Notes: generated from the sequence alone by a model not told the origin. DNA of 64,000 bases from Dictyostelium discoideum (GCA_000004695.1 CM000151.3:2688001-2752000), one strand, 5' to 3'; shown: positions 33,058-40,892, counted from the first letter of the stretch. Numbers and translations are program-made.

Positions 33058-33910
33058 TATTTTAATAGTTTTTATAAAAATATATTTTTATTATTAAAAT
33101 TTTCAATAATATTGGATTATATAAAAAATGTAAATATAAGTTTTTTTTTTTTTTTTTTTTATAATTTAAAATTGATAACTCTTCATATAATATTTACATT
33201 TAATAAAAAAAAAAATTTAAAAAATAAAAATTTTACGACGTCATTTAATTGTTTTGAGATATCTTTAGACTTTTTAATAATTAAAATATTATTTAATTTC
33301 ATTCTAATTAAGCCTATAGATATTACTTTTTTGAAATTATTTTTAAAAAAGGTATTTTTATGTACTTTAAAAAAGTAAATTGTATTTTTAATTATTAATA
33401 ATCAAAATGAAAAAATGAAAATATATTGTTTTTTTTTTAAATATTAATTGATTTCATTTATGTCTGTCCCTTAATGGTGAAATTATTACCCCCTTTCTAT
33501 GTAGGTAAATCATTTTTAATCTTTTTTTTTTTATTTTGTTTTTTTTTTACCTTTTCAAGTACTTGAATTTTATATTATTATCTTTTTTTTTTTTTTTTTT
33601 AATTTTTAAAAAATTAATAATAATTCTTTTAATTAAAAATTAAAATATAAAAAAACACATGGGGGAGGGGGTAAAAACCACAATGGGTAATTTATATATA
33701 CATTGGGTTGAATTTTATATTAACTTATTTCTTATTTTTTTAATTTTTTAATTTAACACTATTCTAATCCTAATTAAAAAAAAATGTTTTTAATAATTTT
33801 TCCATATTAGAGGTTAATATTTTACTTTTTTAATTTTTGGTAATTTTATTTAATATTAAATTTGAAAATTTTTAAATTTTTTAGTAAAAACAAACTTTCA
33901 AAAGATACTC

Positions 33911-34017
33911 ATTTATTATTATTATTATTATTATTATTATTATTATTATTATTATTATTATTATTATTATTATTATTATTATTATTATTATTATTATTAT
34001 TATTATTATTTAACATT
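33911..34017. repeat. (ATT)n microsatellite, about 35 copies
   Basis: Direct reading. Similar long (ATT)n/(TAA)n tracts occur at 36430..36520, 36895..37010, 39360..39445 and 43745..43830. Confidence 0.9.
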
Positions 34018-34018
34018 A

Positions 34019-36024
34019 TTATAAATCTTTAATTTTATAAAAGATTTCAACATCACAAACATTATCTGGTAATTGAAAATTTGTATCATTTAAATATTTA
34101 GAAATGATTTGTCTTTGAGTTTTACCAACTTTAGTTTTTGGTAATTGTGGAACTATTAAAATTTTTCTTAAAATTGCAAAATTTTCTATATCCTTTGATA
34201 TTATTGTATTAATTTCAGATTGTAATTTATTTAAATCAATTTGTCGAATTGATTGATTTTCTTCTTGTTGTTTTAAAACTAATATACCAATTGGTACATT
34301 ATAACAATCTGGATTATTAATACCTATTGAACAACATTCTAAAACTAATGGATGTTTTAAAATTGATGTTTCAATTTTATTTAATTGAACTTTATTACCA
34401 CTGATTTTAATTTGATCATCTGATCTTGAAACAACACCATAACAATTATTTTCATCTTTAAATCCTAAATCACCAGGGTAATAGTAACCTGGAAATTTTG
34501 TAAATAATTGTTTAAACTTTTCATCATTTTTATAAAATGTAGTTGTAAAACCTGGTGGTAAAGGTAATTTAAATACAAGCTCACCAATTTCATACAAAGG
34601 TAATTCCTTACCATCATCTGAAAAAACCTTTGCTTTTAAAGATGGAAATGAAACTCCACATGTATTAATTGGAATTTTTAAATTTTTATTATCAAAACCT
34701 AAAAATAAACGACACCTGTTTCAGTTTGACCATATACACGAGTTGATTGAACTTTTAATTTCTCCTGAATATAATTTGAAATTGATTCTTCAATTGGTTC
34801 TCCACCAAGTACCATTTCTTTTAAATTAGATAAATCATACTTTGAATGTAAATTTTTACAATCAGGATCAACTTTAATTAAGTATCTAATTGCTTTAGCC
34901 ATTGTGAATGCACAACTTACTTCATTTCTTTCAATAATTTCCCAAATATCATCTTCCATATGTTTTGGTTTTGTCACTCCTCCTTCAGACATAACTAATG
35001 TATATCCAACTGAAAATAAACCATATAATAGATTATGAAATGATACCCAGCCAATACTTGTATGAGAAAACACAACTTTTATTTTACCCTTTTGTATCAA
35101 TGTTTGATATTTAATACCTACCATATATGGACCATTACTTCTAACAACTGCTTTAGCACTACCAGTTGTGCCACTTGTATATATTATATATAATGGATGA
35201 CTTGATTCTACTGGAACATATTCATAAAATGGTAATTGATTAATTTCTTTGAATTTTTTAATTTCATCATACCAACTTAATGTATTTGGTATCGTTGGTA
35301 TATCATTTACTTTCTTTAAATCTGATTCGCTTGTAATATCATTTCTAAATAAAGTAATTACATTACTTGGTTTAAAAGTTGATAATTCAATTGCATCTTT
35401 TAAATTTGGTGTAAATGTAATAATTTCATCATTAAAAATACCATAATTTGTTGTAATTATTAATTTTGGTGTAATTGTTTCAATTCTATCTATTAAACTT
35501 TTAACTGAATAACCATCGAATAACACACAATGAGTTGCACCAATACGAGCACATGATAACATTGCAATTGGTGCTTCAATTGTATTTGACATATAAATTA
35601 AAACATTATCATTTTTTGATATATTTAAATTTAAAAGTACTCTTGAAAATTCACATACTTTTTCATAAAATTGATAATAGGTTAATTTTATATTTTTGTT
35701 TAAAAATGGACATTCATAAATTAATGCAGTTTGATCTCTTGTTTCTGGATTTTTTATATGAATATCTAAAACATTATAACATGTATTTAATTCACCACCT
35801 TTAAACCAATCTGGATAAATTTCATCACCACTATAAACTTTATCATACATTCTATCCCTTTTTTTTTAATTTTAAATTATTAGTTTTTTGCAATGACAAT
35901 TGAAAAAATAAAAAAAAGAAATAAAAACTTACCAATAAACTAAATCCTTTGCAACTTCATCCCAAAATTCTATTGGTCTGTTATTTGCTAAATCAATTTC
36001 ATTTTCATAGTTAAATTTATACAT
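34019..36024 (-). pseudogene. ACSS3-like paralog C, disrupted (frameshift/indel region at about 34600..34700 splits the ORF into 383-aa and 192-aa pieces); exon 1 at 36024..35933
   Basis: Exon 1 (MYKFNYENEIDLANNRPIEFWDEVAKDLVYW, followed by GTAAGT) and the N-terminal 383 aa are intact. Relative to paralog D, the segment corresponding to D 37650..37720 is replaced by a shorter divergent sequence, which changes the frame. The C-terminal 192 aa resume in another frame. This could also be an assembly or sequencing error. Confidence 0.6.
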
Positions 36025-39011: not shown

Positions 39012-39454
39012 TTTTATAAGGTAATATATGTATTATTAAATAAAATGATATTAAAATAAAACAAATAATAGTTTTATATAAAAAAAGTTTAAAAAAAATA
39101 ATAACTAAATAATAAAATAAAATAAATAATAAAAGTAAAAAAAAAAAAGGTGGAAAACAATTATTAAATCTGGTGTAGATTTATAACCACTATTAACTGC
39201 GATATACAATATTAATTAATTTATTTTTAATTTTTTTTTATTATTATTATCTTTATTTAAATTTTGAACCAATCAGATAAAATAAAAAATAAATTAAAAA
39301 ATAAGGATAATTACAAATTGTGGGGGTGTATAACATATAATTTAAATTTTTTTATTTTATTATTACTAACTATTATTATTATTTATTATTATTATTTATT
39401 ATTATTATTATTTATTATTATTATTATTTATTATTATTATTATTATTAATTTAA

Positions 39455-40390
39455 TTACCACCAAAATACAGGATACTTTCTTTTTCTTGCAAAATTATTA
39501 ACAATTAATGCAGTTAATAACATTGTTAAAGAACCTGATGCCACAGGTACGAATATATAATAAAAACCTCTCCAACGTTGCTCGGCACTCATAACACAAA
39601 TCAAGGCAGTGGCACCACCAGGTGGATGTATTGATTTTGTGAAATGCATTCCGACAATTGCTAAACTGACCGCTAAAGCACATGCTACTTCAGTTTGAGC
39701 ATTTGTATAAACCAATGCAACTCTAATGATTGAACCAACAGTTGCTGATACTATATGTCCAAGTACTAAATTTCTTGGTTGAGCTAATGGTGATTTTGGA
39801 GCACCAAAAATTAATACAGCAGATGCTGCAAATGAACCTAGTAAAAATATAGTCTCTTTTTCAACAGTTACCCTATAATGTAATAATGCTAATACCAATA
39901 TACCAATAAATGAAGATAACCATGACCATCCAATCTCTTCAAGATCTGCTCTAACTGGTGATTTCTCTCCACCTTTCCATTTCTTAAAATATTGAATAAA
40001 ATATAACTTAATTGATAATAATATATTTATTTTTTCATTTTTAATTTTATTATTATTTTCATTTTTATTATTATTATTATTATTATTATTATTATTATTA
40101 TTATTATTATTATTATTATTATTATTATTATTATTATTATTATTATTATTATTATTACTATTATTAGGTTCTGTTTCTAATTCTATATCGTTACTATTAC
40201 TATTATTATTATTATTATTATTATTATTATTATTATTATTATTATTATTATTATTATTATTATTATTATTACTATTATTACTATCGTTTGGTATTGTTTC
40301 TAATTCTATATCATTATTGTTATTATTAATATTATCAGTTGCAACATTTTTATTGGTATGAGATAAATTATCAACTTCTATTTCGTTCAT
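39455..40390 (-). CDS. HPP-family integral membrane protein (PF04982-like), 311 aa, with two very long poly-Asn tracts in the N-terminal region
   Basis: The C-terminal 190 aa consist of 4-5 hydrophobic helices with HPPGGATALI and VGMHFTKSIHPPGG-type motifs characteristic of HPP proteins. The N-terminal half is encoded by (AAT)n runs at 40060..40160 and 40195..40290. Confidence 0.7.
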   Translation of the reverse strand: MNEIEVDNLSHTNKNVATDNINNNNNDIELETIPNDSNNSNNNNNNNNNNNNNNNNNNNNNNNSNSNDIELETEPNNSNNNNNNNNNNNNNNNNNNNNNNNNNNNNNNKNENNNKIKNEKINILLSIKLYFIQYFKKWKGGEKSPVRADLEEIGWSWLSSFIGILVLALLHYRVTVEKETIFLLGSFAASAVLIFGAPKSPLAQPRNLVLGHIVSATVGSIIRVALVYTNAQTEVACALAVSLAIVGMHFTKSIHPPGGATALICVMSAEQRWRGFYYIFVPVASGSLTMLLTALIVNNFARKRKYPVFWW

Positions 40391-40892
40391 GTTTGAATAT
40401 TTATTTGTTGTAATTAATTCATCCCTATAATAATGTTGTCACCTAGGATTGTATATATAAATAACTTTAAAGACTAGTTTTTTTTTTTTTTTTTTTAGCA
40501 CGTTTTTATTTTAATTTTTTTTTTTTTTTTTATTTTTATTTTAATTTATTTTATTTTTAATTTTATTATTTTTCGATTTTATTTTAATTTTTTTCTTCTT
40601 TTGTTTTTCGGGATTCGTTTGACCTAAAAAAAAGTCGTAAAGAATGTTTTGGAATATTTTTAGGTTTGAAAAAAAAAATAAATAAAATAAAATAAAATAA
40701 ATTAATTATCCATATCTTCATCTTTATCTGTTTTTTCAAATTTTATTTTTATTTTTCATTTTTTTTTTTTTTATTTAAATTCATTTTAATGCAAATAAAA
40801 AATAAAAATAGTGGTGTTTTAAAACGCTAATATATATATATATATTTTTTTTTTTTTTTTTTATTTATTTATTTAAAATTTGTTTTAAATTT

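Follow-up and report, generated by a model that had tools for sequence, protein, structure and literature searches.

Likely old tandem duplication of an HPP-tail and acyl-CoA synthetase unit in Dictyostelium discoideum, with a truncated HPP copy and a synthetase gene lost recently in the laboratory lineage

The locus described here lies in a 64,000-nucleotide (nt) stretch of the Dictyostelium discoideum AX4 genome (GCA_000004695.1 CM000151.3:2688001-2752000), the whole of which is termed the window. The window is strongly AT-rich and contains long (AAT)n tracts coding for polyasparagine (poly-Asn). An intact HPP-family gene and an intact acyl-CoA synthetase gene (ACS-D) lie next to one another on the minus strand, and they are followed by a 3' fragment of an HPP gene (psiHPP) and by a second, disrupted synthetase copy (ACS-C; Table 1). 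ACS-D corresponds to DDB_G0273215 / DDB_G0273709 (UniProt Q556Z8), which places the window on AX4 chromosome 2. It carries the ACAS_N, AMP-binding and AMP-binding_C domains, and the same set is found in ACS-C, where it is spread over two open reading frames (ORFs). We consider it likely that this arrangement reflects an old tandem duplication in which the HPP copy was truncated and ACS-C was kept, only to be lost recently in the laboratory lineage, with (AAT)n tracts mediating the turnover.

Table 1. Features of the duplicated locus and of the surrounding synthetase array, in window coordinates.
Feature	Position	Strand	Description
ACS array copy A	27892-29724		
ACS array fragment	30058-30270		exon-1-like piece at 30365-30425 alongside
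ACS array copy B	31022-32863		
(ATT)n/(AAT)n tract	33912..34010	.	directly 3' of ACS-C stop; distal end of duplicated unit
ACS-C	34019..36024	-	unprocessed pseudogene; exon 1 36024-35933, intron 35932-35858, exon 2 35857-34019
2-nt deletion in ACS-C	34019..34030	-	brings TAA into frame; last 5 codons (YNNVK) lost
Annotated 'intron' in ACS-C	34654..34715	-	62 nt, GTGTCG...GGAG, 22.6% GC; from the automated annotation of GCA_054883475.1
Premature TAG in ACS-C	34699..34701	-	1-nt deletion, TAT TTT TAT to TAT TTT TAG
Insertion unique to C unit in AX4 genome	36142..36301	-	93-nt ACS exon 2 piece and inverted spacer block
C-unit spacer	36293..36526	-	common to D unit (39213-39454); two conserved blocks and (ATT)n at ~36410-36518
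psiHPP	36527..36888	-	3' fragment of HPP, codons 185-311 (last 127), without start codon
Unit junction (ATT)n/(AAT)n tract	36890..37005	.	between ACS-D stop and psiHPP
ACS-D	37007..39011	-	intact, 647 amino acids (aa); exon 1 39011-38920, intron 38919-38859, exon 2 38858-37007
HPP-to-ACS-D spacer	39014..39454	-	(ATT)n at ~39340-39450, directly 3' of HPP stop
HPP-family gene	39455..40390	-	intact, 311 aa; PF04982 over residues 147-307
ACS array copy E	46032-48205		~330 nt insertion and 3' frame change
ACS array copy F	48746-50602		
ACS array copy G	51057-52904		
ACS array copy H	53670-55028		degenerate; without ~residues 366-531
ACS array copy I	55696-57522		
ACS array copy J	58417-60240		
ACS array copy K	from 63155		runs past window end

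The extent of the duplication was determined by comparing 33900-36999 with 36900-40500 using blastn. Two blocks were recovered, collinear and on the same strand. The first paired 33916-36119 with 36917-39104 at 91.4% identity over 2211 columns (E = 0) and comprised an (ATT)n tract, ACS exon 2, the intron of 61-75 nt, exon 1 and ~90 nt of 5' flank, while the second paired 36293-36888 with 39213-39843 at 86.9% identity over 633 columns and comprised the intergenic spacer together with the final 389 nt of HPP. A base-by-base global alignment gave the same picture, with coding and non-coding DNA both covered and most of the HPP-ACS spacer included. The parental intron was retained in ACS-C, where 35932-35858 aligned with 38919-38859, and the flanking DNA was retained as well. 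Within the spacer, the block TTTGAACCAATNAGATAA was found at 36342-36359 and at 39263-39280, and the block GGGTGTATAANATATAATTTAAAT at 36390-36413 and at 39324-39347, with an expected number of chance matches of zero; both blocks adjoin an (ATT)n tract in each unit. A role for these blocks as a promoter motif of all the ACS paralogues was ruled out, as within the window they were present only in the C and D units and as one inverted copy (36172-36189). The locus is thus a tandem segmental duplication of a unit made up of the HPP tail, the spacer and ACS, non-coding DNA included. A first-pass annotation, made from the sequence of the window, had proposed a segmental duplication with shared non-coding blocks beside (ATT)n tracts, to be abandoned if the similarity proved confined to the ACS coding portion; the pairwise alignments upheld the duplication, located both blocks where they had been placed, and showed similarity extending well outside the coding DNA.

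Orthologous loci were obtained via the HPP and ACS proteins from assemblies described in PMC12745789. In D. cf. discoideum ACTFIY (locus L002), HPP was followed by a single ACS gene and then by the orthologue of array copy B, and no second HPP match was found. The same single-unit arrangement was present in D. cf. discoideum ACTFIZ (L005) and in D. citrinum (L003), again with no second HPP match in either. Beyond the distal tract in the window, the flank (33911 downward, 'ATGAGTATCT...') matched the sequence after the stop of the lone ACS gene in L002; this match fixes the outer limit of the unit as well as the ancestral arrangement. Two wild D. discoideum isolates, each ~10% diverged from AX4 across the region, carried two units: in both, HPP was followed by D and then by an intact C, which has 647 aa in ACTFIR (L004) and 648 aa in ACTFIW (L006), and a short psiHPP was present in ACTFIW but none in ACTFIR. 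The loci therefore form a series of four states: a single unit, or two units in which psiHPP is long, short or missing. In the D-C spacer of ACTFIW (L006 ~5700-5760), a stretch resembling the last ACS codons was seen to precede an (AAT)-like tract (TCAAAGATTTATATAAT..TTAAATAA; local score 58), and alongside this piece resembling the ACS 3' end the beginning of the spacer occurred a second time, in part.

The HPP copy was the more heavily damaged part of the duplicate. psiHPP shares 61.6% amino-acid identity with HPP residues 185-309, with frameshifts, and its lesions comprise deletions of 1, 2, 1 and 15 nt, a GCAT patch that has shifted and a TGG codon turned into TGA, which amounts to 5-7 indels and a stop within 362 nt. 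The TM_HPP domain (PF04982), complete in the HPP gene (E = 2.6e-53, profile positions 3-157 of 157), is incomplete here, with residues 185-309 only and a broken frame. HPP codons 1-184 were not found in the copy by blastn, global alignment or translated comparison. The homology ends abruptly at 36888/39843 (breakpoint 39843/39844, codon 184/185), after which an (AAT)n tract occupies 36890-37005 up to the ACS-D stop. Because the homology stops so abruptly against this tract, the HPP copy was most likely incomplete from the start, that is, truncated at its formation and not decayed from a whole gene. The first-pass annotation had placed an HPP pseudogene fragment at 36527..36890, which was confirmed as 36527-36888, and had described a copy that had 'lost both genes'. 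The lower copy is indeed without an intact gene in AX4, but its HPP component comprises only codons 185-311 and was most likely never whole.

Using L002 as outgroup, 26 substitutions were assigned to the psiHPP branch, two to the functional branch and eight to the outgroup branch, and a count by codon class gave psiHPP 14 non-synonymous changes and the functional copies 0 and 1. The fragment would have drifted neutrally since its formation, with the amount lost differing by strain. The psiHPP copies of AX4 and ACTFIW have in common a derived CGT-to-TGT change that occurs in no functional copy, indicating that they are the same old fragment, although that of ACTFIW has only ~130 nt (codons 243-280 and the last few codons). 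In ACTFIR, no psiHPP was present between D and C, and the D stop was followed by (AAT)n and then by the spacer. Since ACTFIR is sister to ACTFIW (C_R-C_W distance 0.033, for the C genes of the two isolates), ACTFIR must have lost psiHPP, and the segment that it lost is exactly the stretch between two (AAT)n tracts in AX4.

Long (AAT)n tracts were found directly 3' of HPP, ACS-D, psiHPP (where present) and ACS-C in AX4, ACTFIW and ACTFIR. In the two unduplicated cf. discoideum loci such a tract follows HPP, but the ACS gene is not directly followed by one. Each boundary of a gain or loss coincided with (AAT)n, be it the junction of D with C, the psiHPP edges, which differ between AX4 and ACTFIW, or the clean absence of psiHPP from ACTFIR. 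On our preferred reading of these data, a head-to-tail copy would have been made of ~3 kb of DNA that began midway through HPP, at codon 185, took in the spacer and all of the two-exon ACS gene, and ended at the (AAT)n tract lying 3' of the ACS stop. A copy starting at codon 185 would have had no promoter, no start codon and none of the first 184 codons. The gains and losses would most likely have arisen by unequal recombination or replication slippage between direct (AAT)n repeats.

It could be, though we regard this variant as doubtful, that the first event was an unequal crossing-over between the (AAT)n DNA coding for poly-Asn in HPP (~40047-40280, in two tracts at ~40047-40160 and 40190-40280) and the (AAT)n 3' of ACS, so that the copy began at about codon 115 and the edge at codon 185 was produced by later erosion. 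Stepwise loss from the repeat side would fit the fact that psiHPP abuts (AAT)n at different codons, 185 in AX4 and ~243 in ACTFIW, and is gone in ACTFIR, and the junction tract AATAAAAAT-AAAATAATAAT resembles HPP just past the poly-Asn tract. However, this resemblance is weak, sits in low-complexity DNA and was read by eye, and the variant needs an extra deletion of ~200 nt.

The C copies of AX4, ACTFIR and ACTFIW were found to group by derived states at 12 polarised sites, and 15 changes were assigned to the stem of the C clade. Around the position of the frameshift, C-type genes read GGTGT(C/G)GTT...GGTTTTGAT...AATACATGTGGA, while D-type genes read GGAGCAGGT...TGTTATGAT...AACACAAGTGGC. The p-distances were 0.071 between the C genes of the window and ACTFIR (C_win-C_R), 0.048 between the corresponding D genes (D_win-D_R) and ~0.086 for unconverted C-D pairs. 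The C-type derived states common to the three strains indicate that the duplication is older than the split of those lineages.

Comparison of C with D in the window gave dS = 0.132 and dN = 0.061 (synonymous and non-synonymous divergence; ratio 0.465, Nei-Gojobori), but this average masks a mosaic. In a sliding window, C-D divergence rose from 3-5% in the two outer thirds of the gene to 9-13% in the middle, the phylogenetic signal alternated (eight runs over 26 sites, permutation p = 0.013), and the longest identical C-D run was 161 nt (p = 0.001). The mosaic and the long identical run indicate that gene conversion between C and D took place in the AX4 lineage, where patches would have been homogenised after the duplication, and much of the patchy C/D similarity is best read as gene conversion. 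The first-pass annotation could be taken to imply a recent, genome-specific duplication of two complete genes, one copy of which lost both by decay. The 91% identity of C and D, their identical runs of up to 161 bases and the absence of a C unit from three related loci would agree with such an event. Nevertheless, C orthologues with common C-specific substitutions occur in two isolates ~10% diverged from AX4, the high-identity patches fit gene conversion beside mid-gene divergence of 9-13%, and HPP codons 1-184 left no trace in the copy; a recent duplication is thus largely refuted by L004 and L006, and we consider it very improbable. Gene birth-and-death is the right kind of process, but the timing proposed for it and the manner of each loss were not. 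The 'direct snapshot' was not borne out, as the duplication predates the separation of AX4 from two diverged wild isolates in which C is intact.

The split {D, O_Y | C, O_Z} was supported by 15 sites, against five for {C, D | O_Y, O_Z}, with the single gene of L002 grouping with D. This suggests that the L002 lineage lost its C unit. Some lineages have lost psiHPP, as ACTFIR did, and others probably the whole C unit.

The state of ACS-C itself was explored by comparison with its intact orthologues, ACTFIR_009559 and ACTFIW_011938. The base lost at the premature TAG is the T of TATTTTTAT|GG, where the intact orthologues read TATTTTTATGGTTTTGAT, and after the TAG reading resumes in another frame at 34597. 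No further internal indel breaks the frame in any of the eight C/D-type genes compared; the indels of the other seven all sum to multiples of three, and ACS-C also carries one in-frame 3-nt difference. Both the 1-nt deletion and the C-terminal 2-nt deletion are confined to the AX4/AX2-type lineage. The disruption of this gene had been noticed in the first-pass annotation and is accounted for by the 1-nt deletion that gives the TAG at 34701-34699. Two disabling indels in 1.9 kb of ACS-C contrast with the 5-7 in the 362 nt of psiHPP. Given this contrast, the AX4-only out-of-frame indels and the intact gene in two wild isolates, ACS-C was recently inactivated. It is, as far as these comparisons can be read, a very young pseudogene that was a maintained gene for most of its life. 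The copy would have been complete at its origin and retained as a working gene, which it is predicted still to be in the two wild isolates, and in the lineage of the NC4-derived laboratory strains it would have been inactivated very recently by the 1-nt deletion, with its immediate TAG, and the 2-nt deletion.

Relative to the L002 outgroup, C had accumulated 29 synonymous and 55 non-synonymous changes and D had accumulated 14 and 23, so that C was about twofold higher in both classes. The ratio of non-synonymous to synonymous change did not differ between the two branches (C 0.47, D 0.41; Fisher p = 0.84), and part of the excess in ACS-C is due to the older C/D split and not to decay. When distant paralogues (F, G, I and J) served to polarise C and D, most sites stayed ambiguous and there was no hint of asymmetry, and the close outgroups were used instead. 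The asymmetric decay that had been claimed for the module therefore holds for HPP, with 26 substitutions against two, and not for ACS-C, where the ratios are alike and the damage is limited to two small deletions in the laboratory lineage. The terminal branch of C_win carried 12 synonymous and 11 non-synonymous changes, which is well below the nominal neutral expectation (p = 0.0005).

The possibility that ACS-C still works was raised by the automated annotation of GCA_054883475.1 (locus L001), in which the frameshift is spliced out as if by a newly evolved 62-nt intron. Removal of 34715-34654 exactly reproduces the annotated product KAM9952234.1, a 622-aa 'hypothetical protein' (L001 14367-16372). 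The GT...AG boundaries of this segment restore the frame without stops, and the substitutions on the C_win branch show no non-synonymous enrichment. However, the donor GTGTCG is unlike the GTAAGT of the gene's real intron, the GC content is 22.6% compared with 13.3%, and 34654-34715 is ordinary coding sequence in C_R, C_W and D. Its removal would moreover cut 21 residues just after the YGQTETG motif, and among the AX4 reference proteins on record none reaches 90% identity to C, the top match being D at 87%. A search for frame-restoring introns gave 23 GT...AG combinations, none with a consensus donor and all inside sequence that is coding in the orthologues, and these were rejected as artefacts. 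Gene predictors commonly place false introns to bridge frameshifts. A functional spliced ACS-C is accordingly judged highly unlikely; the 62-nt intron is most likely an annotation artefact and KAM9952234.1 most likely a frameshift bridged by a false intron. Exact look-up of the 383-aa and 192-aa ORFs of C, the HPP protein and the 614-aa ORF of D gave no match in the protein collection searched.

The same assembly provides a second reading of the lesions. GCA_054883475.1 is 99.94% identical to the window over 20.9 kb, and its five differences (one substitution and four homopolymer lengths) all fall outside 33900-40400. By elimination, and on our own inference, it is probably the AX2-214 genome of PMC12745789, because the project's other D. 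discoideum genomes are described there as diverged from AX4; the project is described as combining Nanopore with Illumina sequencing (PMC12745789). That ACS-C is intact and its frameshift a sequencing or assembly error is hardly credible: a single-base loss beside a T run is a typical error context, and correct reads would then show TATTTTTATGG, but the same base is equally missing from this independent assembly, which differs at five other sites, and the 2-nt deletion is likewise common to both.

Several observations count against an old duplication of one simple unit followed by recent loss of ACS-C, or at least complicate it. First, the original breakpoint was not necessarily at codon 185, and the edge seen in AX4 may be secondary, as the ACTFIW fragment has eroded further from the (AAT)n side. 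Second, the insertion at 36142-36301 contains a 93-nt piece of ACS exon 2 (36209-36301, residues 20-49) that is at most 92.5% identical to any copy, together with an inverted copy of a spacer block (TTTGAACCAAT.AGATAA) at 36172-36189. It was not present in the D-C spacers of ACTFIR and ACTFIW, and a further unit or a complex rearrangement may have left it behind. Together with the remnant resembling an ACS 3' end in ACTFIW, the 93-nt fragment suggests a more complex history, possibly with a third unit since deleted. Third, the site counts conflict. In the HPP tail, four sites join psiHPP and the AX4-type functional copy against L002 and D. citrinum, while two adjacent sites say the opposite, and a four-taxon ACS test with D. 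citrinum as outgroup gave 24, 21 and 12 sites, D. citrinum being ~0.17 from both C and D, like paralogues F and G. Because of these conflicts, C could be absent from L002 through loss, through lineage sorting of a polymorphism for its presence in the ancestor, or through conversion. Finally, the apparent ratio is only 0.40 even in psiHPP, which is clearly dead (14 non-synonymous changes to 11 synonymous), presumably because of AT-biased mutation at G/C third positions. By this control the C_win branch is not significantly constrained, and the rate ratio alone is not decisive; the case for recent loss is borne by the difference in indels and by the orthologues that are intact.

The stem shared by the D-type genes and L002, as opposed to the C-type genes, carried 14 non-synonymous changes and one synonymous change in ACS exon 2, concentrated in mid-gene. 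This excess was not significant against neutrality (p = 0.16) and was significant against the family background (p = 0.0014), and it could reflect a functional shift after the duplication. A broader and tentative idea is that (AAT)n microsatellites, which abound in Dictyostelium both in 3' flanks and as tracts coding for poly-Asn, might act as sites of recombination through which units the size of a gene are gained and lost time and again; taken with the 14:1 burst in the D lineage directly after the duplication, coding repeats might then help to drive the expansion and functional divergence of the enzyme family.

ACS-C and ACS-D belong to an array of at least 12 copies or fragments resembling acetyl/propionyl-CoA synthetases, on both strands of window 27892-64000, with a common gene structure of a first exon of 31 codons and a single short intron. 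In ACTFIR (L004 15945-17945), another member of the array is called as two separate genes, of 294 aa and 323 aa, and inactivation of array members thus appears to be lineage-specific elsewhere too. In a profile search, ACS-D aligned over its full length with the AcsA and PrpE models but scored far under the curated NCBIfam cut-offs, which span 657-955 bits (353 bits compared with 725 for TIGR02188, and 346 compared with 955 for NF007815), so that these scores do not allow a substrate to be assigned. From its domains and alignments, ACS-D is placed in the acetate/propionate-CoA ligase branch of the ANL superfamily of adenylate-forming enzymes.

The poly-Asn N-terminal region of the HPP protein (window 39980-40390) varies strongly in length among strains and species, the protein having 311 aa here and 265-292 aa in L002-L006, with the TM_HPP domain 97-98% conserved. 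The best matches to this domain were from dictyostelids and bdelloid rotifers, followed by bacterial proteins (Desulfobulbales-type) at ~50% identity, a ranking that could reflect past gene transfer or a distribution that is phylogenetically unusual. Beyond HPP, a CfaA/B/C-like ORF at 40893-41486 contains an exact match to a published primer for DDB_G0273217. The paired DDB_G identifiers indicate that the window sits within the part of chromosome 2 that AX4 carries duplicated, a duplication mentioned in PMC12745789.

The locus illustrates how a single reference genome can mislead, since what appeared to be a young duplicate losing both of its genes is better described as an old duplicate, in which the enzyme copy was long maintained and then inactivated only in the laboratory-strain lineage, beside an HPP fragment that was probably never whole. 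The NC4-derived laboratory strains would be without one ACS-like enzyme that is found in wild isolates, which could matter where the metabolism of laboratory and wild strains is compared. The main practical by-product is the likely mis-annotation of KAM9952234.1 in a new public D. discoideum genome. The junctions bounded by (AAT)n also suggest a testable mechanism for the expansion and contraction of tandem arrays in a repeat-rich genome.

A literature search on the gene identifiers returned only a table of quantitative PCR primers and no paper describing this duplication, and no mention of the ACS array locus was found in PMC12745789. That paper (Holland et al. 2025) describes the Dictyostelium tgrB/C locus, which has been studied in the same set of species and is alike in its local duplications, gene fragments and recombination between paralogues; tgrB/C is, however, a hypermutable allorecognition locus, whereas the present one is an array of metabolic enzymes with far slower turnover. 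With regard to protein families, ACS-D resembles AcsA and PrpE in domain architecture and end-to-end alignment and differs in its far lower score, and the HPP protein has the full TM_HPP domain of its family (PF04982), to which the Dictyostelium protein adds a long poly-Asn N-terminal extension. The position of the junctions in direct (AAT)n, with one strain lacking exactly the segment between two tracts, is reminiscent of copy-number change mediated by repeats in the manner of non-allelic homologous recombination. In this case, however, the repeats are trinucleotide microsatellites of ~60-130 nt and not long low-copy repeats, and the mechanism is suggested by position only.

psiHPP resembles partial gene duplicates that arise from a breakpoint inside a neighbouring gene, having codons 185-311, no start or upstream region, and subsequent frameshifts and a stop; it departs from them in that its edge abuts a microsatellite and varies by strain, so that the breakpoint seen now is not necessarily that of the first event. 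The locus also matches birth-and-death evolution with gene conversion in its presence/absence variation among lineages and its homogenised neighbours, with nothing essential that differs. ACS-C resembles unprocessed pseudogenes of tandem arrays in being adjacent to its parent in the same orientation, in keeping the intron, promoter region and flanks, and in its small disabling indel. The phenomenon is ordinary for tandem arrays, and the locus is a well-documented worked example of it and not a discovery; what it adds to the usual unprocessed pseudogene is the strain series, in which C is intact, frameshifted or absent with its whole unit, and psiHPP is long, short or missing.

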